Below, one piece after another: positions 6,346 through 53,968 of a stretch of DNA of 64,000 bases. The DNA comes from Obrimoposthia wandeli (Eukaryota). Position 1 is the stretch's first letter, and every line of letters starts with the position of its first letter. The notes beneath the pieces were generated by a model. The model was not told the origin of the DNA. It did no database searches and worked only from the letters and a program-made list of their open reading frames with translations. Made by a program: the position numbers and the translations under genes. The stretch covers positions 372,001 to 436,000 of the forward strand of contig CDROCS010000376.1 in assembly GCA_977020255.1 (NCBI GenBank), read 5' to 3'.

Positions 6346-6363
6346 AATTCATTTACTGATGCA

Positions 6364-9060: not shown

Positions 9061-9216
9061 TCTCCATTCAAATGTTTATTTTATCGTATATGAGAGATTT
9101 TTAGAAATTTTATTTTATGGGACTCTTATGTTTTTTATTTTATCCTTTTTATGTTCCCTAACACTTGCACACACACACACACATATATTTTCATTTATAA
9201 TTAAATGTATTTAACT

Positions 9217-9351
9217 AGATGTGACATGGAGATAAAATTTATATTTCATTTAATGTGAATGTCAGGGCTATCCTATAGTGACAAAAAGATGTGACATGGA
9301 GATAAAATTTATATTTCATTTAATGTGAAGGTCAGGGCTATCCTATAGTGA
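9217..9351. repeat. 70-bp tandem duplication (2 copies)
   Basis: agatgtgacatggagataaaattt...gggctatcctatagtga starts at 9217 and again at 9287. Confidence 0.9.
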
Positions 9352-9539
9352 TGACTACATGTCAATAGAACACTCAGAGCAAAATATATGTACGTTTGAA
9401 AAGAGTTTAATAGAAGAAAGACAATGAGTCATCGATGATTCGTGGTCTTTGTTCTCCGATAACAAAGGCTGCTTTTCAGGACAAAGACCATGAGACATTG
9501 TGAACTTTGTCCTGAAAGACACATATCCCCTTACTTATA
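9322..9539. repeat. Right arm of a ~210-bp inverted repeat pair (partner 2544-2757)
   Basis: See the left arm. This copy has a ~28-nt deletion between two atg(g/a)gtcat motifs relative to the left arm. Confidence 0.8.
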
Positions 9540-10177: not shown

Positions 10178-12041
10178 GTGAGTCACGCTAACACCTTCAT
10201 CATAATGATATTAGTACTGGCGAAAGCTTCAAAATCAGGAAAAAGAACAGAAGCATAAAACAGCTTGCAAAATTTTAAAAGTTTTTCTTGAGAAATGGTC
10301 TCACTGATTTAATAAATATATGGATTTAATAAATTATCAATAGAATTATTATAATTTAAAATTAAATAATAAAAATGAAAAGTGAAAAATGAAACAAAGT
10401 AAAATTACACGGTACTAATAGTATTTTTAATATATATTGTCTATATTATTGGATTCCTTGTCTTATTTTGTCACATTTTAGGGTTAGTGTTAGCGTTAGT
10501 AACTGAATGCAATTATAATTATACATTTAGTTTATTATGATATAAATTCAATTTTGTGTAACAGTGACTCGATTTCATTTGTTGGATAATTTCTAACTTT
10601 CACAAGCTAAGAAGAGTAAAATTTATATTAAATTAATTATTTTACAAATGAAATAGACATAAATTAGAAAACAATCGTTTGAAAAAAGGTATTATGCAGA
10701 AATATCCATCAAGTTTATGACTGTCAAAAATATGTTTTATTTAAAGAAAAAATAAACTTTTTAAACTAAATAAGGAATTATTTCCTATGCAAGTTTACTC
10801 TAATGAAATACAAAAAACATTCAAAGAACAATGACAAAATTTTAATATTATAATCATTCGTCAAGTTTCTAGACCTATTTTGCAATTTTAAGATTAATGT
10901 AAATTTCATCTCTATTTTCAATGTTTTAATCACGTGATAATTGGAGCCATGTTTCTGAAAACAATGGTGATTGACGTAATGGAGAACAACTTTTAAAGCT
11001 GACTGTTCAACGATCCTTTTTCGACTAATTTTCTTTTGTAAGATAGCTTTGATGATGAATAAAACTAAGGAAACGAAACAAGTTGAATTTTGTTGTTGTA
11101 TATTTTATTTTATGTGAAAATGTGTGTTAAATAATGTAAAACGCTTAGAAGATTCATCCTCATTTTAAAAAGATGAAAATTGGTACTCTTTCTGAGTTCT
11201 CCAATTTAAATAATAAAATATAATTATTTTGACTTTTGTAAGAACAAGTATATTTTTATTTTTATTAAATTAAAATATTTAAGTATAAAAATAGCAACCT
11301 TAAGAATACCATTCTTCTATTAAAAATGCTAAAATCGAAAAATTTTTTTTGATTCAATTAAGAAAACCATTAAACAAAAGTTTGAAAAAAGACGCGCTTT
11401 AAAAATTGTAATTTAACATGTTTCATATGATTAATATGGTATTTTATTTTTAATAAAAAGTGAAGAAAATTCTGATTAAGTGCAAAAAAAATTCTTAAAC
11501 TGGTCGTGAATTAATTTAATATTGAATAGAAGCACACGACGCTTATTGTTGAATTTGAGCCTTCTCTGTCAAATCTCAAATCAAATATTTTATAAAAAAA
11601 CATTTATATTATTAAAATTTACATTTACATTCTTTGTATTTATGCAATATATAATATTTTAACAGACTAAAAATGCTTCAGACAATGGACTGTTCGAACG
11701 AATTTCCAAAGCTCATCATTTATTTAAATAAAAGCACCAAAAAAATCTAAAAAAGCCATCTACAGAAGAATGGGAAAATGGAAAATACCGATTTTCGATT
11801 GAGTTACGTTTTAAAATAGCTCTGAACTGTCGAATTGTTGTGTATGGTTGGGCATTTAATTGAGCATTTGTTGGGTTGAAAATTTATTGAACCCGGTGAA
11901 ATGACAATTTTAATATTTTTCCATGTTTAATTAAATGTTCACTGTAATTTGTAAAATTTCTTATTCGGAGGTAGATACTGAAAAGATTATTATGAAAAAT
12001 AATATTTCAGAAATCTGATTAGGAAATACCGATGTGTATGG

Positions 12042-22419: not shown

Positions 22420-23030
22420 ATAGATTTTGGTACTGATCTGGGAAACATGTACCAGCGTCACCATCATTGGGTTCTTGAAGTACTCTTCTCTTTGAGGGTC
22501 TACATTTTCTTTTTATATTAAACTTGTCTTGAAATGTTTTTCAGCTTGTGACAGAACGATTCCAAGTATCAATTGGAGCAGTTTGTTATTTGACATCAGT
22601 ACATTCAACTTAGGACAGAGAAGTTTAAAATTAAAATCTCTTGAACCAATGACTATTCAACGTTAAAATGTTCCAACGGAATAAAGGTACACTGTCTCAA
22701 GATGATAGAGCAAATTTCCTCTGTCCGGAAAGCAGCAGTTATCGCCCTATTGACCAAACCCCTTGACTTTGGTAGACATGTAACAATTAACATATGTTTT
22801 TCTTCTTTATCTCTAGAGGATCATTTGAAAAGAAACAATACAGCAGTTGTTGGCTAGATTCTAAATAATAAGAACACAGACTACAGACGGAGAGGGGATA
22901 TCGTTGTATTCAAAGATGAGTGCAAATCAATCTGTGTCATTGTGGGATAATCCCCGTGCTGTTAATAAACATTCTATATTGAATAAAAATATTGTGTCGA
23001 CGCTGTGGGCAAAATAGTTAGGCTAGTCAT
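22420..23030 (+). mobile_element. Possible LTR-retrotransposon integrase C-terminal remnant
   Basis: Fragments GTDL, YRP..TP and GDIVVFKDE..VIVG are reminiscent of gypsy integrase/GPY-F regions. No intact frame. Confidence 0.3.
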
Positions 23031-23501
23031 TGTTTTCTGCCATTTGATAGGTTTTCCCTAAACGAAATGATCTGCAATCTGACATGTTTGTGCATCTTTG
23101 GGCAAAGTCAAGTTCCCAGTTGTCCCCAAATTAGACTTACCATGGATATGTTGGGGAAATCTAAAAGTGATGATGATTGATCACTTTGATCACCCCAAAA
23201 TCTGACAATCGAAAATGATACGTTGACTGAGGGATAAAAAGAATTGACCAACGACTACAACTTGTTGTCTTTGTAGAAGCCACAGTGGCAAAGAGTATAT
23301 CGTTACTACTTGCAATGAATGCTGTCATGAATTTTCATTATAGTTTATTTTATATATGTATAATTCTGCAGTTGGGTGCTATTTTACCACAAAAACTTTG
23401 TACGTTAATAATTAAATAGTGCAATTATAGATTACAGCACAAAAAAAACTTCAATATCAACCGATAGACATTGACTAAATGTGGATATGAATGTAAATTA
23501 T

Positions 23502-23595
23502 AGTAGGTGGATGTGTCCGGTCTAATCCACACCCCCTCCCCCTACTGTCCTTTAAAACCGTGCATGTGTGTGGAGTGAAATTTCGTGTAGGTGTG
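23502..23595 (+). repeat. Left terminal inverted repeat
   Basis: agtaggtggatgtgtccggtctaatccacaccccctccccc..gtcctttaaaaccgtgcatgtgtgtggagtgaaatttcgtgtaggtgtg. Its reverse complement is found at 40731-40807 and 54755-54848. Confidence 0.95.
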
Positions 23596-23879
23596 TAGAA
23601 AAATTTTCTACCCCCCCTCCCAAACACTCAAAAAAATAATTAACTCCATATAACACCCTGTAAATTTAAAAATCTCATAATGCTCCCAAAATTTTGATTA
23701 AGGTCCTGAGAGGCCAAAAAATTTTCCTTATAAAAATTTATATCCATACATATATACAAGGTCATAAAAAAAAATTTCTTTATAAGAATTTATAGGGTCG
23801 CAAAAATTTTTAAATAATCAACTACATAAATTCGAAATAATTTTCATTTTTATTTGATGAGTCATCAAATTAGTCATCA

Positions 23880-24075
23880 TGACCTCATGATGACCTAGAC
23901 AACTTTGTACCCTTGACCTCATGATGACCTTGACCTCATGATGACCTTGACCTCATGATGACCTCGAAAACTTTGTACCCTTGACCTAATGATGACCTTG
24001 ACCTCATAAGGTCATGACCTTAACTTGACCTCATGATGATGATGACCTCATAAGGTCATGACCTTAACTTGACCT
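23880..24075. repeat. Subterminal array of TGACCT/AGGTCA hexamers
   Basis: 16 TGACCT (23880, 23891, 23914, 23925, 23931, 23942, 23948, 23959, 23982, 23993, 23999, 24015, 24026, 24043, 24059, 24070) and 2 AGGTCA (24009, 24053), counted by eye. Confidence 0.9.
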
Positions 24076-24274
24076 GAAATGAGTTCATGAATTTTTTATA
24101 CCATCCAAACATGTACAGTCAAAAAATATTACTATTTTAAATCCAAAGACATACATGTATTCAAACATCAACAAAATTTAAGAAAATACCATAAATTCTT
24201 TGAATAATACGTTTTCATTGGACGTTAAACTTATACAACAAAATCTTAAGAAAATCTTAAGAAAATAGTTTTAT

Positions 24275-24564
24275 TTTCGAATAAAATATGTTTTATCCAA
24301 TGACATTCCAGCATTCAAACATAGTTAAAAAATTGAGAAAAGCCTACTGATTTTCAAATAAATTATTTGAATAACTCGCTCTCATTGGACGACAAAAGTT
24401 TAGTGATATACTTTCGAATAAAATATGTTTTATCCAATGACATTCCAACATTCAAACATAGTTAAAAAAATTGAGAAAAGCCTACTGATTTTCAAATAAA
24501 TTATTTGAATAACCCACTCTCATTGGACGATAAAAGAGGGTTAGTCTATTATTTTTGTATATAA
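24275..24564 (+). promoter_or_regulatory. 137-bp tandem duplication with CCAAT/ATTGG boxes and TATA upstream of gene A
   Basis: Units start at 24275 and 24412, with a third diverged unit upstream. CCAAT at 24297 and 24434, ATTGG at 24217, 24384 and 24522, TATATAA at 24558, ATG at 24621. Confidence 0.65.
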
Positions 24565-24620
24565 GGAAACCTCTTTTCAATATTTTTCATAAATCAAATA
24601 TCATCAATCAAGAAGCAAGA

Positions 24621-26732
24621 ATGTCAAATTTCAATAACGTCGATTTGGATGAAGAGACGGAGGTTCAGCTGTATGGGGATCTCTCTCCAGTACAGCAGCA
24701 AACGCCACCACCGGCGCAGTACATTGACTTACTTAGTCAAGACTCGTCGGTGGTGAGTGAAGGAGACGAAGGAGAAGCAGCAGCAAAAGCCCAACTGTTG
24801 CTAGAAGAAGAACCGCCATTGGCCAGCTCAACTCCAAGAGAACAACCAATGAGCGTGCGAGGTGGGGTACAGAGATCCCAATATATCGATCTGACTAGTC
24901 AGGATTCGATAGAGAATTGGGAAGACTGTACTCCCAGGCTGAACATAGAAGCCAATCGTCCGGCAACTTCAGCAGTAGCAGCAAGGAGATCCAATCTCTT
25001 CGACAATTTTGAGGCGGCAATCAAATGCCCCTGGAAATTGATCCCGCTGTCTCAACCGGAGATAATACTGGCACCAGACTCAGACGAGGAGTTGTTTACT
25101 GATGACGTTCCGTCGGATGGGGAGGAGGAGTGGATACAGCTAAGTATCGGAGCCCCGGGAGCCAACGAGTCCATGGTTGCAGAAATGGATGAAGAAGAGT
25201 GGGATCTGTTCACTGACGAATGGGATGGTCTCACTCCCTCTACAACTCCGACTCCGATACCCAACAATACAGTGCCTGATCCATTCAGAAGGCCACAATC
25301 TCCGATACGTCCTGTTAGGAGAATAAAGGCAACGAATGAGGTTAGAAATCATTTATTTAAAATGTTTTTTAATTTTATTTTCAGAAACTGCAACTTGATT
25401 TGGCACCGTCAGTGACCACGATTGAGAGGCTAATTGAACGTCAATACTTGGCGAGTCAATGTAGCCAGGATGATCCCAGGAGTGATCAGAGATACCTACC
25501 GACTCCGGCTAAAATTGAGGTATATTATTATAAATTAGTAAATTTATTTAATTATTCACTTAGGAAGCTGAGTTGGTGGAGGAAATTTGGGAGGAAGCAT
25601 CTCGGAGACTACCTGTCGATAGGAAGCAAGCGGCAGTTAAGAAACCTCGACGTCATCGAATCAAAACTAATACGGTCCATCGGAAGAAGGCCAAGTTGGT
25701 GAAACAGGCTAATCTGCCCGTCATCGAGGTAAATTATTTATATGTTTAAATTTTATGAATTTTTTTGTTGTTGCAGGGACCAATAATATTAACTGAGGAG
25801 ACATGGGCCAAAATTTCTCCTTTCCCGCAAAAGCGAACGAGGCAGTGTGCTGTACGGAAGACACGGCGTCTTAGAAAGGCAAAATCCTGTCTGCTCAATT
25901 CGAGTGAAGTAACGATTGAGCGGCAGGAAAATCTTCCGTATAAGATTATTGAGGTAATTTTTTGTTATTTTAAATATTTTTCTAATTAAATAAAATTTAT
26001 TTGAAAATTTATTTTTGTTTTCATTTGCAGGAACCTGTCCGGATAATTGAGGAGACTTGGGGAGAAGTTACTCCTTTCCCTAAGAAAAGGACAAAGCGGG
26101 CAGAGGTGAAGAAGACGAGGCGCGCGAGAAAAATTCGGACCTCAATTGGCCATTATTCTGAGGCGGTGATTGGCCAGCAGGAGATTCTCCCTCCTCCAAT
26201 GGACGACGGGCCTATCCTATATGAGAGGATCCCAGTCTCACCAATCGAGATAAGTCCGCACTCGAGTCAACAACGCCTGCAGGAGACTGCTTTTCCTCGT
26301 CCAACAACCAGCCAAAACTTGAAGAGGGCCTGGGATGACGCTGGTTTGGACGAATTCTTGGCGGAACTGGATACACCGGCAATGCTTCCAGATTCGCGTG
26401 GGCAACAGGATGCCGTCTCACGCCAGCTTCAGCGTGAGAAGGAGGAGAAACAGAAGAAAGCTCCGCGGAAGAGGAAGGCTACTGCTTCTATGTCGGGGCC
26501 ATCAACATCGGCTGCACCTCCTCCCAAAAAGTTGCGGCAACTATTGCCAAAACCCGAGGGAAGGACAATTGCTGTACAGCAACCGGTGAAGCCGAAAAAG
26601 AAACCGGGCCGACCAAAGAAGAAGGAACCAGTACCACTTTCTCCTATCAAAATAAGTCGGAGGGAATACGACCCGGATGATCCCAATGATGACTTCGTAA
26701 AAATGTTCAAAAATATAATTTATAAACATTAG
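24621..26732 (+). CDS. Polinton accessory gene A: ~632-aa, 5-exon low-complexity nuclear protein (SIM-like motifs, three exon-encoded repeats, NLS, AT-hook)
   Basis: Exons 24621-25340, 25385-25519, 25564-25728, 25777-25953 and 26031-26732, separated by AT-rich GT-AG phase-0 introns of 44, 44, 48 and 77 nt. Splicing joins three ORF-track fragments plus a frame-shifted exon (25564-25728) into one open frame. The 3' end could have one more intron near 26698. Confidence 0.8.
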
Positions 26733-27091
26733 TTTCTTGTGTTGTCTTTTTATTATTATTTATTTTAGAATTTAGTAATATTAAAATATACTACTTAAGT
26801 TTATTAAAATTACAAGATTAAAAGTAAAGTTTAGAATTTATTAATATTTAAATATCCTCCTTAAGTTTATTAAAATAACAAGATTAAAAATAAAGTTAAC
26901 TTATTCGAATGTGATTGGATTGTTAAGGAATAATTAAATTTTTTTAGGATTAAATATAAATGCAATGATTAGTTATATATTTATTAAACTTTCATTTGAT
27001 AAATATATTTTAATTACTTGTGATTGGATTAAAAATATCTTAAATTTATATATATAGGTTCAAATTTATTAACATCTTCATAATTAAAAAA

Positions 27092-27421
27092 ATGGAATTT
27101 ATTAAATTGCAAAGTTTGGTGACGAAGATCGAGACAAACATAAGAATAAATGAGAAGAAAGGAGACTTACGAAAGAGGATCCTCAACCAGAATTTATATA
27201 CTGCTGTCGCGACCGAGTGGAATCGTCGGGTGGAGATTCAGGACAGGCGGCTAGCAGAACGACGTCGGGTTGTGGAGTGGAACAAGAAAATCGAAATGGA
27301 AAAAAAGAAGGTGGAGGAAAAAAGAAGAGAAGAGACGGAGGATGTTCGGCGAGCAGAAAGAAAGCGAATCCTCCAGATTAAACCGGAAGAGGGTCCTTCC
27401 ACAAAAAAATTAATTTTATAG
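27092..27421 (+). CDS. Polinton accessory gene B: 109-aa charged coiled-coil protein with a SERTA/IER-like N-terminal motif
   Basis: Intact ORF with upstream GTGATTGGATT boxes (ATTGG at 26914 and 27023) and a TATATA. The LQSLVTKI..LRKRILNQNL resemblance is by eye only. Confidence 0.7.
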   Translation: MEFIKLQSLVTKIETNIRINEKKGDLRKRILNQNLYTAVATEWNRRVEIQDRRLAERRRVVEWNKKIEMEKKKVEEKRREETEDVRRAERKRILQIKPEEGPSTKKLIL

Positions 27422-27562
27422 ATTATTATTTTGTCTTTATTGATTATGTTATAAAATTGTCTAAATATTAAATTGTCTAAATACTACCTCGTCATTTTAA
27501 TAAATTTTTGATTAATAGTTTTTCGTTATAAACAACGGGATTTGCTACAAATTTGGGTAATT

Positions 27563-28051
27563 ATGCAGGAATATATCATAGATTTTGAGGCTTTCATTAA
27601 CAAAAATGGGGATTATATTATAAAAGAATTATGTATTATGGATGTATGCGACGTTTTTCATCCTTTGCATTTCATATTTCATATAGATATCCCATTTAAA
27701 AGTTTAGATTATAAGAAAAAATTTACTAATTTATATCTAACTAAATATTTCCATTTATTAAAATGGAAAGAAGGACATAAGGCTTTTTGTGAAATATGTA
27801 TTTTCGATACTATTAAATCTAATTTTGAAATTGAAAATGGAATTTTTTATGTTTTAGATGACATGGATGGCAAAAAATATAAGACTTTAAGAAAATATTT
27901 TCCTAAATTGAGGTTGAATACTTTAAATATTTCACGTGATCATCTATTAAAAATTCCACAAAATATTTCCTGTCCATATCGTAATCATGGTGACCATTGC
28001 GCATATAAAAAATGTTTAAGTCTTTCTTATTATTACTTGACATGTAGATAA
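27563..28051 (+). CDS. Polinton accessory gene C: DEDD/DnaQ-exonuclease-like protein with a C-terminal Cys/His cluster
   Basis: MQEYIIDFEAF..YIIKEL..HFIFH..LYLTKYFHLLKWKEG..CPYRNHGDHCAYKKC matches the D.E/Q.F..IKEL..H.L.W..G..C..H..CA pattern of a recurrent Maverick accessory family. Confidence 0.7.
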   Translation: MQEYIIDFEAFINKNGDYIIKELCIMDVCDVFHPLHFIFHIDIPFKSLDYKKKFTNLYLTKYFHLLKWKEGHKAFCEICIFDTIKSNFEIENGIFYVLDDMDGKKYKTLRKYFPKLRLNTLNISRDHLLKIPQNISCPYRNHGDHCAYKKCLSLSYYYLTCR

Positions 28052-28063
28052 ACAATTCTTCTA

Positions 28064-28405
28064 ATTGGAGGAATTCATTATTAAAATTTTACAATTATTT
28101 ACAAATAAGCCTTTTGATTGGAGGAATAAATTATTAAAATTTTACAATTATTTACAAATAAGCCTTTTGATTGGAGGAATAATTTTTTTTTCAACCTATA
28201 ATATATGAATAATCCTTCTCTTTAATTGGAGGAATAAAATTATTTTTTCAACTTATAATAGATAAACAATCCTTCTCTTTAATTGGAGGAATAAAATTAT
28301 TTTTTTCAACCAATAACAGATAAACAATCCTTCTCAGTGGAGGAATAAATTCAATTTTTTAATCCAATAGGAAAAGAACATGTGTGCATAAATTTTAGTA
28401 TATAA
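28064..28405 (+). promoter_or_regulatory. Tandem 53-57-bp repeats each carrying ATTGGAGGAA, plus TATA: putative pPolB promoter
   Basis: ATTGG at 28064, 28117, 28170, 28225 and 28282. CCAAT at 28310 and 28364. TATATAA at 28399, ATG at 28447. Confidence 0.65.
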
Positions 28406-28446
28406 GCAAACACTTTCTTCATTTAAATCCCCGACAATTTGAAATA

Positions 28447-31400
28447 ATGCCTATGGTAAGAATTTATTTTTCTTATTTCCTTATTAATATTTATTATTTC
28501 AGATTACGTGTAACCTATTCCCTGCGTATTGCGCTGCTTCGGCTCCGCATGGAGGAGAGTCCTGCATGGAGACAATGTCTGCATACTACCGGACAAAGTC
28601 TCAAGGTGTTCTGTTCTTCGTCTGCCCTTTCTGCAGAACAATGGAGGAGAAGGAGTTTCGAGAATTCTTCTGTGAACATCGAGCTCACCTATCGTGTTTC
28701 ACGGCCAACAACAAGAAGAGGGATATCGTCCAATTGGTGCGCGATTCGCAGGCCGCTCCAGCTCCACCTCCAATTCCAGTGGCAGTCAGTCTACCAGTTT
28801 ATGGTCCTGTCATTGGTCCTTCTCTCCCGGCTCCTGATTCTGCTGCTGCCCCATCCACTCAAATGTCTAACAATGAGTGGATGAACGACATCTCCGAGGA
28901 AGATTTTGAGGAGTTGGCACCAGCAACCCAATTCTCAAACAATGACTGGATGCGAAATATCACCCAGTCAGAATTCGAGATGGAGCAGCCTCAGTGGAGC
29001 GATAACTCATGGTTGGAGACCATCGATGAATCCAATTTCGTCGAGTCAACGGACGACAGCTGGATGGATTCCATCAATGAAGAGGACTTCATTCCAGCTC
29101 AACTTGGATTGTCATCATTAGGTATTTTTTTATTTTTTTTTGTAAATAGTAATTATATAATTTATTTTTTAATATATATATCTTATTTTTATTTTTTTAT
29201 TCAGGAAATACCGTTCTACAATCGTCATCTGCTACAACAGATATGCCTCCAATGTCGCGAGTGCCTACATTGATGTTAGGACGCCTTAGAGGTAATAATT
29301 TTTAAAAATATATTTATTTTTTAATATATTTATTTCAGCAGCACTAACCTCTAAAACAGCCGCTTCTTCATCGGCAAGGTCAGCGGTCCCTTCAACATCA
29401 GCTACAGTTGCCTCAACATCGGCAGCATCACCAATAGCAGCACCTTCAACCTCAGCTGAGTTTGTGTCAACTGCTAATATAAATAGTTGTCTTCCCGTTA
29501 AATTAGGGGGAGGTTTGTCAGCGACAAACGGAAGAAAGAGGCGAGGCCAATTTCTTAATAAGGTCCCACCCAAAAAACGTAGAGAAAACGGTGCTACTAT
29601 AGAGTATCACCTAAATAATAAATATGTTATAGTTAAGGTGCCATTAGGAAATGAAATTTTATTAAACGTAGGTGTAGATTCAAATATTGAAAATCTTTTA
29701 AAATCAGAAGTGACTAAATTAGGACAGGCTAAGGTTCAATTTTGCGCAACAGTGCAGTTTAAAAATGTCAATGAGGAAACTAAAACTTGGGTAATTTCAC
29801 ATAAAGCAACTGTTTTTTATGATAATTTTGTAACTGAAATTGGAAGAAACCTGGATGAAAAAATTGCTAATTATAGCGAGTTAAGTAGTGGATGGACTCT
29901 AGTTAGAATTCACGATGTTAGCTTTGTTCTAACAAAGTTCACTGACATGATATATCTTTCGGGGAGTTCATACATTCCTTCACCTAGATCTCTTCAACTT
30001 TCACGTTCCATTGTTAACGTACAAAACAGTGATAACCTTTGCTTTCTGTATAGCGTGTTGGCCATCCTCAAAAGGGATGTAATTACTGAGCATAGAGAGC
30101 GTGTCAGTAAATATACCCCTTTTTTAAATGAATTGCAGTATCATGGAATAGATTTTCCTGTTAAATTAACTGCGATATCAAGATTTGAACATCTTAATAA
30201 CTTGAGTATTAATGTATTCAAATATAATACTGATATCTCAGTTAATGTAACAGATGAAGAAAATTTTAAAAATCCTTTAGTAGATGTAATTTATAGGAGT
30301 AAAAATGAGGGGACTCAGGTCAACTTAATTTTTCTCGAACATAATAAAAAATTCCATTATGCTGCAATTCCCAATTTAGATCGTCTTCTAAATTTAGATA
30401 ATGGAGCCTTACCGGTTAGGATAAGGTGTAAGTGGTGTCATAGATGTTTGCATGGGTTCCGATCCGAGCTCTCTTACAGCAAACATCTGACATTATGTTC
30501 ACTGAATCCTGATGACAATACGCTATATAGCATGCCTAAGGATAAGGATTTAAAATTCAGGGATTGGGCAAAATGCATACCCGTGGAATTCAGGGTGTAT
30601 GCAGATTTTGAGTCAATTTTAGCATTGCACGACCAGTATGAGAGTATTCACCTACCGGCTTCGGCAGGACTACTATTCTTAGGCCCCAATATTACCCAGT
30701 ATCATAAATTTTCCGGTCCAAATTGTATTTTAGATTTTATGTTAAAATTAGAGGAATTAGGAACAACAATTGTCAAACCGTGGTATGATCTCAATGCTCA
30801 TCAAGCAATGATCATGACAGGCATAGACTGGGTTAATTTTAATTCTTGTAGATTATGTAATTTGTGTGGAACCCAGTCTAAGTTAGTCAGAGATTACGAT
30901 CATGTTATGGGGCGATACTTGGGAGCGGCGTGCAACCTTTGTAACCTTGGCCGTTGTCTCCCTAAAAAACCACGCATTCCCATCGTGTTTCATAACCTCA
31001 AAGGATATGATTTGCATCATATACTTAAATACGCGTTGGGTACATTAAGCTCTTGGGAAATTTCATGTATGCCTCAAACTTCAGAGAAATATTTATCTTT
31101 AACTGCATATACTGAATTCTGCAGTTTAAGATTCATAGATTCTCTGCAGTTTTTGAGCGGGTCTTTAAAAAATTTAACGGCATCTTTAAATGCATGGCCA
31201 ATTACACAGTCAGTGTTCCCAACTTCGGTTAACGATAAGGGGATTTTTCCGTATCAATTTGCGAAAATTTTCGCAGATTTAGAAAATACAACTGAAATCC
31301 CACCCATAACTGAATTTGAGGGTGTAAGTCTTCAAGACTATAATGAGGCCCGTACATTTTGGGTGAATAATTGTCGAAATCGTTTAGAATATATGCTTTA

Positions 31401-32888
31401 TTATATGAAGTTAGACATTTATCTTTTAGCTTATGTTTTTGAGTCCTTTCGTGTAAAGTCTTTAGCAGAAGATGGGCTAGATCCCATGCATTTCTTTAGT
31501 TTACCTGGTCTTTCATGGGCAACAGCAATAAAAACTCTTAAAATTAATATTGAGTTACTGCAAGATCCCGCGATGTATCAAATGTATGATTATGGTATAC
31601 GCGGTGGAATGACTTTTGTCAACAATCATCATGTTGTCAAAAGTCAATCCACGGAGATTCTGAACATCGACATTAATAATTTGTATGGGTGGGCGCTTAC
31701 TCAACTTCTTCCTCATGCCAACTTTAAGTGGGTTTATGATGAGGAAGAGTTGAATAAGTTGATGACAGATTTGGCTACTGTTGATACAGTTTCATCAGAT
31801 ATCGGCTATTTGGTTGAGGTTGACTTAACAATCCTTCCAATGTGCATGATAAATTAGATGATCTTCCAGTAGCGCCTGTTCATCAATACCCACCTAATTC
31901 AAAGGTTAAGAAATTATTGTTAACCCATGAAGACAAGTTGAATTATGTTGTGCATTGGCGGCTTCTTCAATTCTACTTAAAGTTGGGAGCGAAAGTTACT
32001 CGAATTCATCGTGCTAAAAGCTTCAGTCAAAACTTTGTGTTTAAAGACTATATTGAGAAGAATTCAAGAAAACGTAATTTGGCCACTAGCAAATTCGATC
32101 GAGATTTTTATAAGTTAAAAAGTAATAGTCTCTTTGGAAAAACTGTAGAGGACTTGCGGAAACGTATTTGTCTACGGTTTTGCAATGATGAGCGTAAACT
32201 AAAAACATATACTAGCAAGTACAACTTTAAGCGTAGTTTTACAATTGCAGATGACTTGGTAGCAGTGTTATTAGGAAAACAGAGTATTTGTCTCGATCGA
32301 CCGAGTTATATAGGTCAAACGGTTTTAGACATTTCTAAACTCAGAATGTATGAGCTTCAATACATAGAATTGGAGAAATACCGACAAGAATTTAATTGTG
32401 AGATTAAAATCGCAGCTGGGGACACTGACTCTTTCTTTTTAGAATGTAGGAATGTTAGTTTAAATAATCAATTATTACCAGCAATGTTTAGGGACAAATT
32501 ACTAGATACCCATAAATATCCCGCTAACCATCCTCTACACTCTATGAGTTTAAAGGACATTATCGGGAAATTTAAGGATGAAAGCGAGGGACAGGTTTCG
32601 TATGATGATTGTATTTTCCTACGCCCTAAATGCTACAGTTTACATGCATCTAATAATACATGGTCAATGAGAGCAAAGGGTGTGGGAAGAAACAATCTTA
32701 CACATGAGGCCTACCGGAAAGTTTATGATACTGGGTGTATTGAAAGCGTTGAGCAAACTAGATTTATTTCAAGAGCCCATCAACTGTATTCCCATAAATC
32801 AACCAAAATCGCTTTGAGTAGTAATGACGACAAGCGCTTTTGGGTAGAAAAGAACGCTAGCCTGGCTTATGGACACTTCAGAATTTAA
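28447..32888 (+). CDS. polB: Protein-primed DNA polymerase B with spliced N-terminal extension; one -1 frameshift near 31836
   Basis: Exonuclease motifs YADFES, FHNLKGYD, YMKLDIY. Polymerase motifs DINNLYG, KLKSNSLFGK, AGDTDS, LRPKCY, KG. Predicted exons 28447-28455, 28503-29121, 29205-29291, 29339-32888. The join of ORFs 29464-31857 and 31842-32888 is repaired by one extra C in atcc[c]ttcc (LTIPSNVHDKLDDLP). Confidence 0.95.
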
Positions 32889-33161
32889 ACGGTTTTCATT
32901 TTTTGATTTTTTAGTTTAGTTTTTTTAAATTTTAGATCCTTATGGCACTTAGACTCTAACTTATTTGTTATTTCAATACTTTTTAGGATGGACCTTATTT
33001 ATTATGCCTTATCTTTGCTGACATATCTCATTGTGATGTTGTGATTAATAAATGTATTAAAAAAAATTGTCTTATGTCTTTTATTATTTTACCCTTATAT
33101 TTTTAGAGATTTAAAAAATAATTCAAAATAAAACATTTAAAATTTTTATTTTTATAACACA

Positions 33162-33543
33162 CTAATCGTTTTGCAACGATAACCATAAAATACATAAATG
33201 TCCACAGTTTCTCGTCGCAGGATCCTGATATTGTATCTTGTTGTAAAATACTCTTCTTCGTCCTTTTTGAATAGTTGAAACAAGTTTGTGTGGATAATAC
33301 ATTGCAAGTGGATCAAATACATGTATTGTTCACTCTCTAACATAAATAGCTATCCAATGTTCTCCTGGTAAATTCGAAGTATGAGTATTGATAATGTAAC
33401 CTCCAGATTGAAAAAAATGGAATCATATCAATAGGATAAACTCCATTGAATTTATCACCCAGGACCTTCTCTGCTGATTCTTTTACTTGTTTTGAACTTA
33501 ATAAAAATTAATAAATATAAATTTAAAATATGTCTTACTCCAT
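33162..33543 (-). pseudogene. Adenain-type maturation cysteine protease (PRO), spliced, disrupted
   Basis: Not in the ORF track. ATG-GA micro-exon (33543-33539), 42-nt GT-AG intron (33538-33497), then MDSKQVKESAEKVLGDKFNGVYPID..GGYIINTHTSNLPGEHWIAIYVRE*TIHVFDPL..QYQDPATRNCGHLCILWL. Catalytic H, D, Q and C are present. One extra T in a T7 run (33411-33417) and an in-frame TGA (33330-33332). Confidence 0.9.
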
Positions 33544-33544
33544 T

Positions 33545-34776
33545 CTATAATATGACAGTTCTGTTTTTATTGATTTGTATTTCCGAATCAAATACTCCGT
33601 AAATAAGCACCGTAGTAGGATTTGTTAAAGCTGCATTGAACTTAATTTCTAGTCGTAAATTTCCATCCTTTGGTAGTTGGCATTGGTTTATATCAAAGTC
33701 TGGTGCCAAAACAAATGTGAAGAACGGGCAGCTGTTTTTAAATTCAGTGAAAGAAATACCATTGTTTATATTTTTATCTAGTTGACCCAAATTCCGAATA
33801 ATAGATTGGGTATAAGCCAAAGCATAAGCGTTACCTTCGAAATCTGTTTTATATGTTTCACGATAATCAGTATTTCTTGAAAGTGTCACTGAACCAACAT
33901 TGAAGATTGTCAAATTGAGTTGCATCTGTCGTATAATTTCCTAGAAACTTTGCAGTTTTTTGGAAAGAAATTAAAATGAATTTCGGTAATCTTACACCAC
34001 CAAAAATTTGATCCTTATTAAAAGCTTGTGTACCCGTACCTAAAAAATAAGATATAAGTTTAGTTTCTCTAATAGGATAACAAGCATTGTTTTTTTCCAT
34101 TCCTATATTATGTGCCATTAAAACTGATTGCTCGGTTTTAACTCTTCGAACATACAATTTTGCATCCAAAATATCAAGTCTAGGTTTTAGAATGTCCGTG
34201 CTTGTCAAAGAAAAATTCCATTTATTACGTTTCAAACGAAGATGTACATTAACACCGGGAATTAAATATTTCGGTTGTTCAAAGAAATTCAATCTCAAAG
34301 ACCCACACATTTCGTAAGCTTTAGAACCTGCAATCCATTCTTTGCGAGTTGCATCAGTTTTATCATAACCAATGGTTGCCAAATTAGTATTTTGAGTATC
34401 AGTACTATAATTCAAAAGACTTTCAATCAAAGCTTTATGAGCATAGGAAGAAATTTCCACCTTCAATTTTGACATTATTAAGAGTAACAATGGCATCATT
34501 AAATAAAGAATTAAATAGATAATTTACAGGTGTTACATCGGCATTTTCATCTAAATTAGTACCATCCCGATTTAATACTTTTATTTGAACATAAAGCAAA
34601 GTATCATTCAAATCTAAATACTCGCTATTGGAACCATTAATATTAAATTCTAAATCGGTTAAAATGGTTCCTTAAACTGAGTTAACTAGGAATATTTCTT
34701 CAAAGGAAGCATTATCTACAACTACTTGTGGAAGCGGTTTATCAAAAATACATAAATCAGTTTTGGCGCAACTCAT
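33545..34776 (-). pseudogene. Major capsid protein (double jelly-roll, hexon-like), disrupted
   Basis: MSCAKTDLCIFDKPLPQ..LEFNINGSNSEYLDLNDT..VTPVNYLFNSLF..YAHKALIESLLNY..FFEQPKYLIPGV..LAPD..GNLRLEIKF..VLIYGVFDSEIQINKNRTV is the typical Polinton MCP. One TAA (~34672) and frameshifts near 34455 and 33905. Confidence 0.9.
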
Positions 34777-35085
34777 TTTGCAAATATTGTTCCTTCAACT
34801 TTCTTACGTTTGTTTATATTAAGTTTTAGCTTCTTTTACTTTTAAATCCACTACCTCCTTGGCTTTTATTTGATTTACGTTTTCTAATCAAATTAGCAAC
34901 TTCAGGTAAAACATTATCAAGTTCATCAATTTTGATATAAATCGCCCGAGTCTCTTTAAAAGAGGAAAGGCAAATCTACCTAATGTTCTAAGCCAGCCAG
35001 ATCCGTATTGTTTACCAACAAAATATGGTAATTCTCCACCTTGTTGGCTTTGACTATAAGCTTCAATTATTGCTGGATTCGCCAT
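34775..35085 (-). pseudogene. Small Gly-rich amphipathic virion (core/membrane-lytic-like) protein, frameshifted
   Basis: YSQSQQGGELPYFVGKQYGSGWLRTLGRFAFPLLKRLG matches the conserved Polinton Y..Q.GG..F.G...G.G..L..L.R.A.P.LK peptide. The basic C-terminus KRKKVEGTIFAK* is in another frame. Confidence 0.7.
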
Positions 35086-36103
35086 TTTGTTTTCTTAAAT
35101 GTATTGTTAAACTTGTCTTGGCCCCGTACGTGAAATCTATTAGTTGTCCGGAATCATCTCTAATATTTACTTCAATATTGTTTATAGAAAAGAGAGAAAC
35201 TGGAAGATACATTGGTTGATCTATACACATACCGACAGTGTCTCCATCTCTAGTTTCATTTTTAGATATCCATATTGTTCTCAAAAGTGGAACTCGCTGT
35301 CCTCCTACAAGCGTTGGTTCTATTAAATTAGTATAAATATATAAATTATTAACAGCATTTAAATGTTTTGCCTTATTTTTAGCTTTTATGGTTTTTATTG
35401 TATGGATTTCAAAGGTATTTCTGTTTAAACCAAGGTTTTTAGCGAGTTTATCATCAAATGAAACTCGTTTTATATTGCTCTTTACTGTAAACGTTAATTT
35501 ACCATTTAATGTTTCACATTTATCCAAATATTCACTACATTCCTTCTGTATTAATTTACAGAAATTCACTTCACTATCTATTTTATAATCTTTTGAAAAC
35601 GTTTTCAGTTCCACTACAGTCTTTGGTCTCGTTTCAAGTAACAACACTTTTGCTACTCTACCAGGAACATTTCTAACTGAATTAGATGAGATAATATCCC
35701 GTTTATTACGAGCTACTGTTTGTTCACTATCAAAACTGAATTGAAGAGCTTCTTTTTTAGATTCAAAATTAATTTTAATAACTTGAAGAAATTTTAATCG
35801 ATTTTTAAATCTGACTTTGTTATTTTCAAATATTACTTTCACTTCTTTATCTATACAATTGTAATAGAATTGTCCTTTACTATCAAACCCGATAACAACT
35901 TCAGTTGTTTTTTCATGATCAACTTCTTTTGTAAACGAAATATGTGAGTTTTTTTGATAGTAATTGGAGAATAATAAAAAGAAAATTCTGTTAAAGCCGC
36001 TTCCCATAGAATTTTCCCAATCGATAATAAAGCTACTAGCGTCATTATCTGGTTGAGTCTTCGGACATCCGTTACTTGGTAAAACCATATACATAGAATT
36101 CAT
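35063..36103 (-). CDS. Minor capsid protein (penton-like)
   Basis: N-terminal YMVLPSN..P.N..SF and C-terminal LYIYTNLIEP..VG..VPLLR..MYLPV..IEVNIRDDSG..F..G..LTIHL. The conserved WEAALTEFSF lies in another frame, indicating a compensated double frameshift. Confidence 0.85.
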   Translation of the reverse strand: MNSMYMVLPSNGCPKTQPDNDASSFIIDWENSMGSGFNRIFFLLFSNYYQKNSHISFTKEVDHEKTTEVVIGFDSKGQFYYNCIDKEVKVIFENNKVRFKNRLKFLQVIKINFESKKEALQFSFDSEQTVARNKRDIISSNSVRNVPGRVAKVLLLETRPKTVVELKTFSKDYKIDSEVNFCKLIQKECSEYLDKCETLNGKLTFTVKSNIKRVSFDDKLAKNLGLNRNTFEIHTIKTIKAKNKAKHLNAVNNLYIYTNLIEPTLVGGQRVPLLRTIWISKNETRDGDTVGMCIDQPMYLPVSLFSINNIEVNIRDDSGQLIDFTYGAKTSLTIHLRKQNGESSNN

Positions 36104-37128
36104 ATTATATTAGATGCTGATATCCAAGTTGGGTCTGAATAACCATGCCATTTAACAAAGTATTGTTTATGTTTACCTGTACCCTTAGATTTTAATATTT
36201 TTTGAATACGGTAAACGCTAGGTTTATTTGATATTACTTGTAGTTCTTGCTCGTAAAATTTACCGTGAACGATATTATTGTCAGCATCTTTAATAGTATA
36301 CATTATTGGATTACTCTTTTGATCAATTTTACTTATACAAAATATTTCATCGCTCCAATTCTGATCAAAGTTTTTAATAAATGGAGTAGAGCTAATTTTC
36401 GAAATTCGAACATATTCGTTTTTCTTATATTTAGATTTTTTAATTTTAGATTTTTTATTCCTGTTCATCCAAATGTCCATAGAGTTTTTATTAGTAACAT
36501 CAACAGGTCTCATTCCCTTGAGACCTCTATGTTCAGAGTGATTATATGCATGTATTATTTTAGGTAAAACTTGGATCCATTTTTTATTTCCTTCTTTTGT
36601 GAAATACTTTTTTATTCGATCTCTTAGAGTACGATTAAATCTTTCTACTACTGCTGCTTTGTATTGGGAAAACACAGAGTAATGATTTATATTATTTTGT
36701 TTAAATAATGATTGAACTTGCTTATTATAAAATTCTTTTCCTAAATCAGTTTGCACATTTTGTGGAATGTCCTCTTTTAATATTTCTTTAATGGCTTCAA
36801 GCATAGCTATTGAAGACTTTGCTTTAACTGGAATTGCACGAGCAAACCTGCTAAATACATCAATACATGTTAAAATATATCGATATCCCTTATTAATGGA
36901 AGAATATGGGATCATCTCCATCAAATCCATTTGCCATAAATTATTAGGACCGCTGGTTTTGTAAGCTCTAGTTGGAAACCTTCTTCTCATCGGCTTGTTC
37001 AGGCTGTAGGCTAACTGGTCGCTCAGCCATTTCTGCGTTTTCTTGTAATTTTGTTTTGTTCTTTTTGCTAATTTTGAAACTCCTGTGTAGCCAATTGGAT
37101 CTTTTGGATTGAACCATATCTTCTCCAT
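36100..37128 (-). CDS. int: RVE-family integrase with C-terminal chromodomain, intact (342 aa)
   Basis: WQMDL, QTDLGKEF and AAVVERFNRTL (D-D-E). C-terminal YRIQKILKSK..QYFVKWHGY..TWI chromodomain. ATG at 37128 (MEKIWF) is supported by the homologue at 5530. Confidence 0.95.
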   Translation of the reverse strand: MEKIWFNPKDPIGYTGVSKLAKRTKQNYKKTQKWLSDQLAYSLNKPMRRRFPTRAYKTSGPNNLWQMDLMEMIPYSSINKGYRYILTCIDVFSRFARAIPVKAKSSIAMLEAIKEILKEDIPQNVQTDLGKEFYNKQVQSLFKQNNINHYSVFSQYKAAVVERFNRTLRDRIKKYFTKEGNKKWIQVLPKIIHAYNHSEHRGLKGMRPVDVTNKNSMDIWMNRNKKSKIKKSKYKKNEYVRISKISSTPFIKNFDQNWSDEIFCISKIDQKSNPIMYTIKDADNNIVHGKFYEQELQVISNKPSVYRIQKILKSKGTGKHKQYFVKWHGYSDPTWISASNII

Positions 37129-37214
37129 TACAACAATTTGAATAGAAAGAAAATTTAAGTTTAGGTAAAGAAGGGCTAGCACCCATATCTTTAGCTGGTT
37201 TTAGAAATAATTGT

Positions 37215-37544
37215 TTATGAACGTGTCGCAGCTATAATACTACTGATAATTGAAGCAACAACTGGAATAACAGCCCCTATGAAACCACCATTATGTTTAA
37301 GAATAATATTTCGTTTTCTTTTTTTACTTTTTACATTAGCAATATCTTGAAGAGGTTTTCTATATTTCTTTAATATATTTTTCCGATTTCCAACTTTAAC
37401 TCGACCCAAAACTATATTATACAAAACTTCCAATAAATCATCTACAACAAAGGATGGAAATGCTTTAAGAATAATCATTCTCTTATTAGAAGAGGCTTTG
37501 ACTAAAGCTTTAAAATAGGGTATGCTTCTTTGTATTTTCTTCAT
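37215..37544 (-). CDS. Small basic conserved Polinton protein with GG-F motif and hydrophobic C-terminus (putative virion core/cement)
   Basis: LLEVLYNIVLG..LKKYRKPL..KRKRNIILKHNGGFIGAVIPVVASII matches the recurrent Polinton E..N.L.G..L..YK..L..KR..L.Q.GGF family. Confidence 0.75.
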   Translation of the reverse strand: MKKIQRSIPYFKALVKASSNKRMIILKAFPSFVVDDLLEVLYNIVLGRVKVGNRKNILKKYRKPLQDIANVKSKKRKRNIILKHNGGFIGAVIPVVASIISSIIAATRS

Positions 37545-37723
37545 TTTAATAAAAAAGGTTTAATTTAAATATTGTTTATATTCGAAGCCATTTAAGTTTT
37601 TTTTTATTTTTAACTACAGATTTGATTAATTTTTTAACTTCTTTTTTCTTAATGATTCTTTTTTTTGATTTCTTAGATTTTACTTTACGTTTTACTATCA
37701 ACTTTGTAAAAGGCATTGCGAAT

Positions 37724-38370
37724 TTATTTTTTATAATTGTTCTCTATTTGTTTATAAACAGTTACTCCCTTAGATTTAAATATGTCTGTTAAAACACGTA
37801 AATCATCTGGGCAAGCTTCTGTAAAGTCAATAAATATATACCCATGTGCTTGTTTAGCAGCATCGTGGAATGAATCAACTAGAAAGTTCTTATTTTGAGG
37901 AAATGCCTGTCTGGCCACAAAATCAACAACTGTTTGATCTCTAGGATTTTTAAATAAAACTAAGTAATGTACATTAAGATTTCTTGTTCTATGATGACCT
38001 CCTGGTGAAACAGATTTTGAGTGATAAATATAACTGTTACTTCACGATGTCTTGCAATCTTTGTAAATAAATTATTAAAGTCCGATTCCTTGTTAGCCTC
38101 CTCATACAAATCATCAATTATTATTACATCTTCTTTTTTCAATCTTTCACACCAATTTGCATCAAATCCTTCAATAAATTTTATACCCTTCAACTTGCAA
38201 ACTTCTGTTTTGGTTAACCCGCTTTCCCCTCCTCCACCATGATGCCAATAAATATTTTTGAAACTAGATTTGAAAAGAGATTCATTTTGCAACAATTTAC
38301 AGACGAAATTTGTCTTTCCACTTCCACTTGGGCCAACTATTTGAAATACAGCATTATTATTTAGCTCCAT
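37724..38370 (-). CDS. FtsK/A32-like genome packaging ATPase; one frameshift near 37997
   Basis: GPSGSGKT (Walker A), IIIDDL (Walker B), ARH..IFITQNLF. Continues in another frame as GGHHRTRNLNVHYLVLFKNPRD..HGYIFIDF..LRVLTDIF. Confidence 0.92.
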
Positions 38371-38407
38371 TGCATATACTCTTTCATTTTTAATATTGTT
38401 TATATTA

Positions 38408-38680
38408 TCATAGAAGTTTCCTTATTGAAATGTACAATGTTAGAGCTATTGTAGATGAAATACAAAAATTAATTAATGAATATTTGACTATAATTTTATT
38501 TATTTGTGTACGAATTCTAAATTCTCGAATAACGTGTGATCTAACCAATATTTCAATGTTATCTCTTGTTATATCATTATTTTTTAATTCTGATAAAATT
38601 TCTTTACCCCTTATTTTTCCAGAAAATATTTCATCGGCAAGCCGATCCACTTCATTGTCTCTATTTATAGTATTATTCAT
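38408..38680 (-). CDS. Hypothetical 90-aa protein with C-terminal hydrophobic segment
   Basis: Intact ORF between the ATPase and TBP-like genes in the same orientation. Ends YSLINFCISSTIALTLYISIRKLL. Confidence 0.5.
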   Translation of the reverse strand: MNNTINRDNEVDRLADEIFSGKIRGKEILSELKNNDITRDNIEILVRSHVIREFRIRTQINKIIVKYSLINFCISSTIALTLYISIRKLL

Positions 38681-38708
38681 TCAAAACAATAAGTTTAAAC
38701 GGGTTTGT

Positions 38709-39208
38709 TTATAGAAAAGATAACAAGATGTAATAAGATATATTTTCTAAAATCAAATCAACAATGTCTGGATAATAAAAATTTTTCAATCCCAATATCA
38801 TAACTTTACCACTGGAAAATATATTTACACATAGCGGTTTAAACTTCAAATAACTGAGAGCAGGAAATATTTCTGGTTCAAACATGCATTCTTCTTTCAT
38901 TTTCTCTGCAGTTTTAAAAAGATTTATCTGTTTTCCGAGATTAGCCGAAATCGTGATTGATTGTATTGCAGTGATTTGAATTCCAAATGGTAAATTGAAC
39001 CCAAGCATTGGTATTTTGCATCCCATAACACGACAATTTCCTAAAGAATTCAATATGAAAATAAAATAAAAAACTAACCTGTAGGAAAAATAACAACTGT
39101 GAAATTGTCAAACCTTTCTACATATTGTCTCGGCTTCCATTCATTGAATGGTAAGTACGAAACATCATCTTCTGTTCTACCTTTATAATTTATATTTACG
39201 AGTTTCAT
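38709..39208 (-). CDS. TATA-binding-protein (TBP)-like protein, 153 aa, 2 exons
   Basis: Exons 39208-39079 and 39040-38709, 38-nt GT-AG phase-1 intron. Repeat 1: MKLVNINYKG..TVVIFPTGNCRVMGCK. Repeat 2: IQSITISANLGKQINL..FEPEIFPAL..PLCVNIFSSGKVMILGLK. Compare TBP QNIV..LIFxSGKxVxTGAK and YEPELFPGL..LIFVSGKVVLTGAK. Confidence 0.85.
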
Positions 39209-39487
39209 TAGACTAAAATTGTATTCTGTAAAATCTTCTTTATATATGTCTGAACCTGCTATTTTATTGCACGTTTCTTGTAATTATCTTGCAAACCTAT
39301 TATAATTGGATGATATATTTCTTCCAATCAATTTTGATTTTTAATATAGATTTAGTCCAATCAAATTCAATGCTTTAGTTATATTAACCAATGAGATTCA
39401 TGTCTTTGTTAGAAATTAGTATAAAAGAATGCGCCATTGGAGGACAAATCACAGTAAATGCATTCATATCAAAGACAATTATCAACG
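39209..39487. promoter_or_regulatory. Divergent promoter between the TBP-like gene and paralogue pair
   Basis: CCAAT at 39324, 39357 and 39388 (33/31-bp spacing), ATTGG at 39305 and 39436. TATA on - at 39239-39246 and TATAAAAG on + at 39420. Conserved in the inverted copy at 57090-57320. Confidence 0.65.
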
Positions 39488-39934
39488 ATGGACGATAGCC
39501 AACGGGTATTAAGCGATGACGAAGAAATGTTTGAAGAATCGGATAAGGATATGTATGAAGAAGTGAAACAATATTTCAAATACAAAGTCAGATTCTTGAA
39601 GAAGGCTCAACTGATTGCTTTAGTAAATCCTGTGACAATTGAAAGAAGAAAGTTCAGCTACTATATATCAGGTATTCAAAAACCTGATTTTCAAAATCTT
39701 AAACAGAAAATAGAAAAGGCAGTTCCAAATTTTACTTTCAATAAGAACGAATTTTATATCTGAGGAGCCGATGAAGCATTTCTAGATGACTATGGAAGAT
39801 ATGTTGATATTGATGCGTTTCCGAAAAAGAAGCAATGGACTCTAACAATTCGACTTTATGGTTACAAGAAAGATGAAATGGGGACAAAGTTGCCTATGTG
39901 GAAAATTGAACGTGCTCATATTTCTATGTTTTAA
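39488..39934 (+). pseudogene. Accessory gene D1 (paralogue of 40068-40472); one in-frame TGA at 39761
   Basis: The frame continues past the TGA: GADEAFLDDYG..WTLTIRLYGY..PMWKIERAHISMF*. Aligns along its length with the next ORF. Confidence 0.75.
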
Positions 39935-40067
39935 CTTTTGTGTGTAATAAATTGTAATCGGTTTTACTATGTTTCTTTCATTTAATAATCAGTTTTATTT
40001 GTATCTTATTTGTATCTTATGTGTATTTTTTATAAACATTGTTTTTAATCAGTTTCCTTATTTTAGA

Positions 40068-40472
40068 ATGGATAAGAGATGTGTAGCAAATTTTTATTAT
40101 CCAGAAAGAATTTCAAAAAGAAAACTATGTAATATATTAAAGAGGCATCAAATTATACGAATTATGAATCCTGTGAAAATATCAAAAGTGGAGAAAGAAT
40201 ATCTCATCGAAATTTTAACAACAACTGATTTTGATCAACTGAAAAATATTTTGGGATTTTACATTCCTGATTATGTATATGAAGGAAATTGTTTCGAGCT
40301 TGAAACTGATCCCAGTCTGGATTTTAAAGATGATCTAGGATATTTGATTGCCCCAATTCTAGATGAAGAACTATGGAATATCTCAATACGTCTCAATGGA
40401 TATTTTGCTGATGACGGGAAAATGCAGCCTCTCTGGACTTTGAGTGAAGCCAATATGTTGTTTTATGTTTAA
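40068..40472 (+). CDS. Accessory gene D2 (paralogue of 39488-39934), function unknown
   Basis: MDKRCVANF..ILKRHQIIRIMNPVKI..DFDQLKNIL..FKDDLG..WNISIRLNGY..PLWTLSEA. The ATG is preceded by ttttag, so an upstream exon is possible. Confidence 0.75.
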   Translation: MDKRCVANFYYPERISKRKLCNILKRHQIIRIMNPVKISKVEKEYLIEILTTTDFDQLKNILGFYIPDYVYEGNCFELETDPSLDFKDDLGYLIAPILDEELWNISIRLNGYFADDGKMQPLWTLSEANMLFYV

Positions 40473-40730
40473 TAAATATTTTGAAAAATAATTTTGTCTC
40501 GTATTTTGTTTTTGCTCCTCTAAATTATATAGATCTGACCGATTTCTCTCCTCTAAATTATAAAACTGACCTAGATATTTAACATGTAGTAATTTATTAA
40601 TCTAAAATCCGGGGTCAATATGGATTCTCGTGGTCTTCTCTAACCACTTTTGAGATTCATGGTAAAAGTTTAACAAATATGGTGGGGGGTTACCCCTTCC
40701 TTCCCCCTTTGGGTGGAATGGAGACATACA

Positions 40731-40807
40731 TACACGAAATTTCACTCCACACACCTACACGGTTTTAAAGGACAGGGGGGGGAGGGGGGTTGTGGATTAG
40801 ACCGGAT
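40731..40807 (-). repeat. Right terminal inverted repeat (13 nt missing just inside the terminus)
   Basis: tacacgaaatttcactccacacac..ggttttaaaggacag..gtggattagaccgga-t. Lacks cacatccacctac relative to the left TIR. Confidence 0.9.
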
Positions 40808-53777: not shown

Positions 53778-53968
53778 NNNNNNNNNNNNNNNNNNNNNNN
53801 NNNNNNNNNNNNNNNNNNNNNNNNNNNNNNNNNNNNNNNNNNNNNNNNNNNNNNNNNNNNNNNNNNNNNNNNNNNNNNNNNNNNNNNNNNNNNNNNNNNN
53901 NNNNNNNNNNNNNNNNNNNNNNNNNNNNNNNNNNNNNNNNNNNNNNNNNNNNNNNNNNNNNNNNNNNN
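53778..53968. other. Assembly gap (191 N)
   Basis: Run of n. Confidence 1.

Follow-up and report, generated by a model that had tools for sequence, protein, structure and literature searches.

The stretch of 64 kb that we analysed (the window) carries an endogenous Maverick/Polinton of 17.3 kb, element A (23502-40807), and three further Maverick relics, B, C and end D (Table 1). Element A shares with Mavericks/Polintons (adintoviruses) the protein-primed polymerase B (pPolB), rve integrase, A32-type ATPase, jelly-roll capsid, terminal inverted repeats (TIRs) and a size of ~17 kb. It differs from them in being a decayed copy, with several genes in pieces and the right TIR clipped, in showing no clean target-site duplication (no exact 6-bp repeat was found in its flanks) and in carrying a TBP-like ORF. 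Its TIRs (23502-23599 and 40724-40807) and length compare with a range of 13-25 kb for Mavericks/Polintons in the available part of 10.1101/2023.08.22.554363, and with a mean of 16.9 kb and TIRs of 46-1447 bp for intact vertebrate Mavericks in that of PMC8097293, according to which particles of animal Mavericks have not been observed.

Table 1. Features of element A, its subterminal array and the other Maverick relics in the window
Feature	Position	Strand	Remarks
Left TIR, begins AGTAGG	23502..23599	+	93% to 54751-54848; also matched by 40724-40807
Three older degenerate units, RRGGTC core, AT-rich spacers	23700..23800	+
19-bp palindrome centred on ATGAGTCAT	23852..23870	.
Second palindrome, around ATGACCTCAT, containing the first half-site	23873..23894	.
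Tandem block, periods 17/34/68, 11 same-strand half-sites, spacers 5/0/17 nt	23880..24007	-
44-bp duplication with everted 4-nt pairs, both IR0 palindromes and TAACT-spaced pairs	23980..24075	.
AGTTCA, sole one-mismatch half-site of the array	24082..24087	+
138-bp tandem duplication separating array from promoter	24275..24536	.
TATA-like box TATATAAG, 63 bp before first ATG	24558..24565	+	Read from the sequence; putative function
First ORF, acidic, candidate array target	24621..25415	+	Homolog in relic B
Protein-primed DNA polymerase B, two frames	29299..32888	+	PF03175 E 3e-15 and 2e-7
Major capsid protein, in pieces	33545..34830	-	Atlas double-jelly-roll 0.96
Integrase with chromodomain	36100..37200	-	rve E 4e-13, Chromo E 3.5e-5
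A32-type packaging ATPase, first piece	37960..38421	-	Pox_A32 E 5e-7
TBP-like ORF, one TBP repeat	38709..39053	-	PF00352 E 8e-12; solved TBPs to E 6e-13
Right TIR, without ~14 outer bases	40724..40807	-	No array; one half-site at 40567
Relic C	~2549-9534		Integrase about 40% identical
End D	54699-54848		54751-54848 93% to left TIR of A
Relic B	56236-58844	-	Sequence at 58844 resembles an end

Full-length relatives of the polymerase are 44-49% identical and relatives of the integrase up to 69%, while the Atlas match of the capsid protein is a lead, its recognition value of 2138 lying below the 2300 mark. As to a protease and a minor capsid protein, protease-like pieces were recognised by eye at 33162-33507, where no Pfam match was found, and the stretch 35063-36109 matched only two of the related loci described below, L085 and L112. 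The sole homolog of the TBP-like ORF among these loci also lies in L112 (2035-2286, 45%); in the available part of PMC8502044, TBP appears just in a figure legend, in a section on non-animal viruses. The first ORF, which gave no Pfam or Atlas match, probably forms exon 1 of an early gene that is spliced. It contains two YIDL(L/T)SQDS motifs, which we take to resemble SUMO-interacting motifs such as those of viral early regulators. Elsewhere in the window, a GC-rich host exon at 62333-62932 encodes a DS-like domain of the discoidin-domain-receptor type, which points to an animal host.

The feature of interest is an array of hexamers that element A carries at its left end only, 350-575 bp in from that end and ~480-700 bp upstream of the TATA-like box and the first ORF. 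A subterminal position had been claimed in a preliminary description and is borne out, here in a virus-like element; the array is also non-coding and upstream of the first gene. A coding repeat and a known RNA family were rejected as candidates: the longest stop-to-stop frame across the array is 44 aa, with no long ORF, and an Rfam search over it gave only a 10.6-bit chance match, outside the array.

Composition of the half-site array

The hexamer AGGTCA, or TGACCT on the other strand, is the word bound by hormone-type (nuclear) receptors. An exact motif count between 23852 and 24075 gave 16 TGACCT and two AGGTCA. The 17 gaps between neighbouring half-sites comprise seven of 5 nt (spacers CATGA four times, TAACT twice and AATGA once), three direct pairs with 0 nt (23925, 23942 and 23993), two IR0 pairs, two everted pairs with 4 nt, two 17-nt gaps and a single 11-nt gap. 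Both IR0 pairs read AGGTCATGACCT (24009-24020 and 24053-24064) and each is nested in a perfect palindrome of 16 bp (24007-24022 and 24051-24066). The counts of hexamers and of 5-nt, 0-nt and IR0 pairs given in the preliminary description are all exact, at the positions claimed; its tally lacked the two everted pairs (TGACCT-CATA-AGGTCA). The contexts of the half-sites include TCAAGGTCA (three times), TGAGGTCA (seven times) and TAAGGTCA (four times).

A palindrome with TGAGTCA had also been claimed next to the half-sites, and one of 19 bp is present, ATTTGATGAGTCATCAAAT at 23852-23870. Its centre, ATGAGTCAT, is presumably an AP-1-type bZIP site, and we take ATGACCTCAT in the second palindrome to be a CRE-like variant and AGTTCA at 24082-24087 to be a known variant of the receptor half-site. 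The degenerate units further out are AAGGTCC (23700), AAGGTCA (23758) and AGGGTCG (23794), and a joint in this region in one public run (X1, see below) shows one more AGGTCATA.

In 5000 dinucleotide shuffles the mean was 1.1 hexamers and the maximum 6, compared with 18 in the array, and the 44.6 kb that belong to neither element A nor D contain it at background level (14 versus 13.2 expected). A comparison of this kind had been proposed earlier, and by both controls the array stands out, but the shuffle test overstates the surprise because the array is a set of tandem duplications. The array is real and non-random, and is subterminal in an ordinary kind of element; it is probably regulatory.

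Tandem growth and conservation of the hexamer

The array consists of nested tandem duplications with periods of 17, 34, 68 and 44 bp. Because it grew in this way, its 18 half-sites are not independent, the three types of spacer represent about two independent ones and a point change, and the seven DR5-type pairs go back to about two independent origins. Such a history raises the possibility that a short unit expanded neutrally in subterminal DNA that tolerates it, with a likeness to receptor sites that arose by chance, and the array would then be an ordinary subterminal minisatellite. We consider this unlikely. The periods themselves are in its favour, and so is the abundance of unrelated tandem duplications in the element and the window (138, 66, 53, 57 and 46 bp).

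We simulated neutral duplication with a crude model (54,000 runs, without indels, inversions or conversion, and with thresholds set after the array had been seen). At least 14 copies of some hexamer were reached in 11,786 of the 54,000 runs, so the hexamer count alone proves nothing. What the model seldom produced is the pattern around the hexamer. All 18 sites carry an identical hexamer, whereas the adjacent base varies on both sides; the half-sites stand in 11 distinct 12-mer contexts; and AGTTCA alone is a near-miss. These three features occurred jointly in 5 of the 11,786 high-count runs. Conservation that ends exactly at six bases, and a lack of decayed half-sites other than AGTTCA, thus stand against neutral expansion. 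Plain slippage, an alternative raised in the preliminary description, accounts for the number of half-sites but poorly for the sharp six-base conservation. Direct comparison of the duplicates is less telling: those of the 68-bp repeat differ at 0/30 hexamer versus 3/30 spacer positions, a weak comparison (p 0.12), and those of the 44-bp repeat, in which one half-site was lost, at 3/36 versus 1/16.

Other copies, other ends and distant relatives

Contigs from four public runs were aligned to 22900-26400; three of these runs (X1-X3) are from one sample, which may be that from which the window derives, and the fourth, X5, is a marine metagenome of a separate study with 12 records. In X1 (100,281 records) the summed depth, which is not a copy number, was 4-10 in the flank and reached 7e4-1e6 within the element, and mixed loose ends (agreement 0.4) were found at 23502 together with the depth step. 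The depth jump and the mixed loose ends fit a family that is large and diverse and has inserted at many sites, and the Maverick family seems very abundant in the host. In X1-X3 no other bin of the element is covered as thinly as 23953-24069, and the exact arrangement of the array in the window is therefore that of a minority. Both this low depth and the differences in arrangement among copies are in keeping with neutral expansion.

Three small gaps at 23932-23940, each at 67-77% of local depth, are among the 12 indels listed of 49. Since their depths are equal and 23931 has a loose end, we infer that they form one haplotype, in which a new 4-nt spacer (23931-23941) separates two intact half-sites. 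The listed indels also include a 3-nt gap at 24033 (58-65% of local depth) that creates an 8-nt spacer at 24032-24042, and the 40 substitutions listed of 295 include none inside the array. X5 contributed a single low-depth contig of 161 nt with a shorter array.

The variants listed from other copies therefore retain the hexamer and not the spacing. It had been claimed that both are kept while the spacer sequence changes. For the hexamer this holds within the window copy (18/18) and in these variants, whereas the 5-nt spacing is replaced at two places in X1-X3, where 4-nt (~70% of local depth) and 8-nt (~60%) spacers predominate. The same result bears on the reading of the array as a DR5 element of the RAR/RXR type. 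Seven direct 5-nt pairs are present, but the spacing is not kept and 10 of the 17 gaps in the window copy differ from it. Because 4- and 8-nt spacers dominate at two places, the DR5 code of RAR/RXR is not special, and we rejected it as a special code.

Within 700 bp of an end, the hexamer occurs at A-left, A-right (one), D (seven) and C (one per TIR), and is absent at relic B despite its homolog of the first ORF and its AP-1 heptamer. It is thus near three of the four other end regions, compared with 104 of 615 overlapping host windows (binomial 0.004 including A-left, which had been picked for the motif, and ~0.02 by hand calculation for the three of four without it). AP-1 heptamers lie near A-left, B and C. 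ATGA(C/G)TCAT occurs three times in the 64 kb, each time in a Maverick end (expectation 0.58; at least three in 4 of 100 shuffles), two of them being the paired TIRs of one element. At the ends of relic C, the alignment stops just past the AP-1 9-mer and resumes in a short island ending in TGACCT, with unalignable DNA around it. The recurrence of the same word and an AP-1 site at non-homologous ends argues against neutral expansion. In the array of end D, on the other hand, the hexamer varies like the other columns (TGACCT seven times, TGACAT twice, TGACCA once).

Several further observations concern these relics. Relic C is degenerate and has another gene order (ATPase, integrase and polB on one strand), with AP-1 and TGACCT at both ends. 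Relic B is internally deleted and holds homologs of the first and last ORFs of element A. On the + strand, GATGTCC follows end B as well as end D. The subterminal array of end D (54214-54641) comprises 9.3 units of 46 bp, seven of them with TGACCT; a polB fragment at 52754-53195 lies beyond a gap of N (~53778-53968). End D has a near-perfect fold-back inside its TIR (50-nt arms, 96%), and loose ends at 23544 and 23596 suggest that this type of end is common in the family. The first inward AGGTCA (at 23759, 40567 and 54591) lies 258, ~250 and 253 bp from three different ends, in the same orientation, which may be chance. Outside the Mavericks, four TGACCT at 49066-49158, including TGACCTTGACCT, look like positions 225-380 of the related locus L036 and are probably a host repeat; the four sites of L036 likewise look like host repeat DNA.

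We collected 120 related loci, mostly without termini, by PolB profiles (80 + 12 + 27) and an integrase profile (one distant locus); a single-protein polB scan of viral contigs gave no match. None of the 120 exceeds 4 sites per 224 bp. In the non-coding DNA of 119 loci (one duplicate dropped) AGGTCA occurs 37 times versus 32.8 expected and ranks 47th among 180 words of the same composition, and this lack of enrichment in distant loci favours neutral expansion. The 19 closest loci have six AGGTCA versus 1.7 expected. Four of these six lie within 160 non-coding bases of L029, with 5' flanks that are AT-rich or TCA and which we take to be monomer sites of ROR/Rev-erb and ERR/SF-1. The place in L029 that carries the four AGGTCA corresponds to 28064-28369 of the window, where element A has tandem arrays of 53 and 57 bp with TGGAGGAATAA upstream of the ORF leading into polB.

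A clear pair of TIRs is found in L104 alone, and its ends have no half-site nearby. In viral contigs the 17-mer unit of the array matched twice, in apparently one coding sequence, and a 15-mer of the TIR gave 13 matches; a DR5+DR0 pattern gave one isolated match, and in metagenomes the TIR pattern gave none. L112, a distant TBP-bearing relative, contains TGACCT/TGACCA repeats at 600-830, near a possible end, and the distant Polinton-like contig L098 has a family of palindromic 30-40-bp repeats with the core GCAACGTTGC (1553-1594, 4342-4383 and 11570-11909).

A candidate host-factor regulatory block

There is about an even chance that the array is a cis-regulatory block of the endogenous Maverick, either enhancer or silencer, that is read by host factors, namely nuclear receptors and bZIP proteins. 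In favour of this is its position between the left TIR and the first promoter, where adenoviruses have their E1A enhancer along with the packaging domain. In such a scheme the array grew through repeated short tandem duplications, during which the six-base word was kept while spacers and the order of units changed, as is seen within the window copy and partly across copies. Host nuclear receptors would read the AGGTCA half-sites with flexible spacing or as monomers, and a bZIP factor may bind the AP-1 and CRE-like sites. The bound factors would then control how the first ORF is transcribed from its TATA-like box and could thereby tie the first gene of the element to the state of the host cell. 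This scheme does not require a ligand response, nor a specific DR5 retinoid element. A generic nuclear-receptor/bZIP enhancer appears to fit better than a DR5/RAR-RXR element, and the mixture of spacings (0, 4, 5, 8, 11 and 17 nt, everted and inverted) would point to promiscuous or monomeric binders over RAR/RXR.

As a compact candidate enhancer with host-factor motifs, the array makes the switching of Mavericks testable on a fragment of 230 bp, and in so abundant a family host genes in the neighbourhood could be influenced too if the arrays are active. A broader idea, possible though rather unlikely, is that the ends of animal Mavericks repeatedly acquired clusters of receptor and AP-1 sites, each built from different sequence, that serve to sense the state of the host. 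If so, endogenous Mavericks would be switched by developmental or stress signals of the host, much like proviruses, and the genome of the host would be strewn with receptor-responsive enhancers by any family of high copy number.

The array could instead be a polar packaging or replication signal for a protein of the element, such as a partner of the ATPase, the integrase, the terminal-protein polymerase or a small basic ORF, with host receptor binding being incidental. We regard this as quite unlikely. Element A has genes for a capsid and an ATPase, and the array stands at one end only, between the TIR and the first gene. At the left end of adenoviruses, redundant short repeats are likewise found a few hundred bases in, between the ITR and the first promoter. 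The available part of PMC5033970 places the packaging domain of Ad5 at 220-400, with redundant repeats that overlap the E1A enhancer, and reports that this domain is bound by the nuclear receptor COUP-TF, which is dispensable for packaging; in our array the receptor sites are candidates by sequence. In location the array resembles this adenoviral region; in motif it does not. The adenoviral A-repeats are AT-rich, of the form TTTG-N8-CG, and have a spacer of fixed and essential length (PMC5033970, in the same part), whereas the array has perfect AGGTCA words with free spacing. By eye we found no TTTG-N8-CG in it, none of three TTTG being followed by CG after 8 bases. Moreover, no nuclear-receptor or bZIP DNA-binding domain was found among the 28 ORF pieces of the element that were scanned, and a signal specific to the element need not match a host motif exactly, nor adjoin AP-1 sites.

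A structural role of the palindromes, as single-strand hairpins in strand-displacement replication, is improbable: the array has four local palindromes and a predicted single-stranded fold of -34 kcal/mol (z -6.4, with 0 of 200 shuffles equally stable), and end D has a true fold-back (54699-54815), but 14 of the 18 half-sites lie outside the IR0 pairs, most of them on one strand, and repeats with palindromic protein sites yield such z-scores anyway.

Returning to regulation by host factors, the available parts of PMC8097293, PMC6431247, 10.1101/2023.08.22.554363 and PMC8502044 do not describe arrays of receptor motifs, and literature searches listed no paper on them. A counterpart is the major immediate-early enhancer of HCMV, which according to the part of PMC4665231 available has three RARE and five CRE that link viral expression to differentiation. 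Like the array, it joins several nuclear-receptor elements with bZIP sites; it differs in belonging to a herpesvirus, with unrelated sequence, and in having been shown by mutation, while the array is far denser, has mixed spacing and is a candidate by sequence. Mobile DNA is also a source of AGGTCA-type sites in host genomes. Among host repeats bearing receptor sites, Alu reportedly carries HNF4 sites, and such repeats spread their sites as the Maverick would; here, in contrast, the sites have been amplified locally into an array within a virus-like element.
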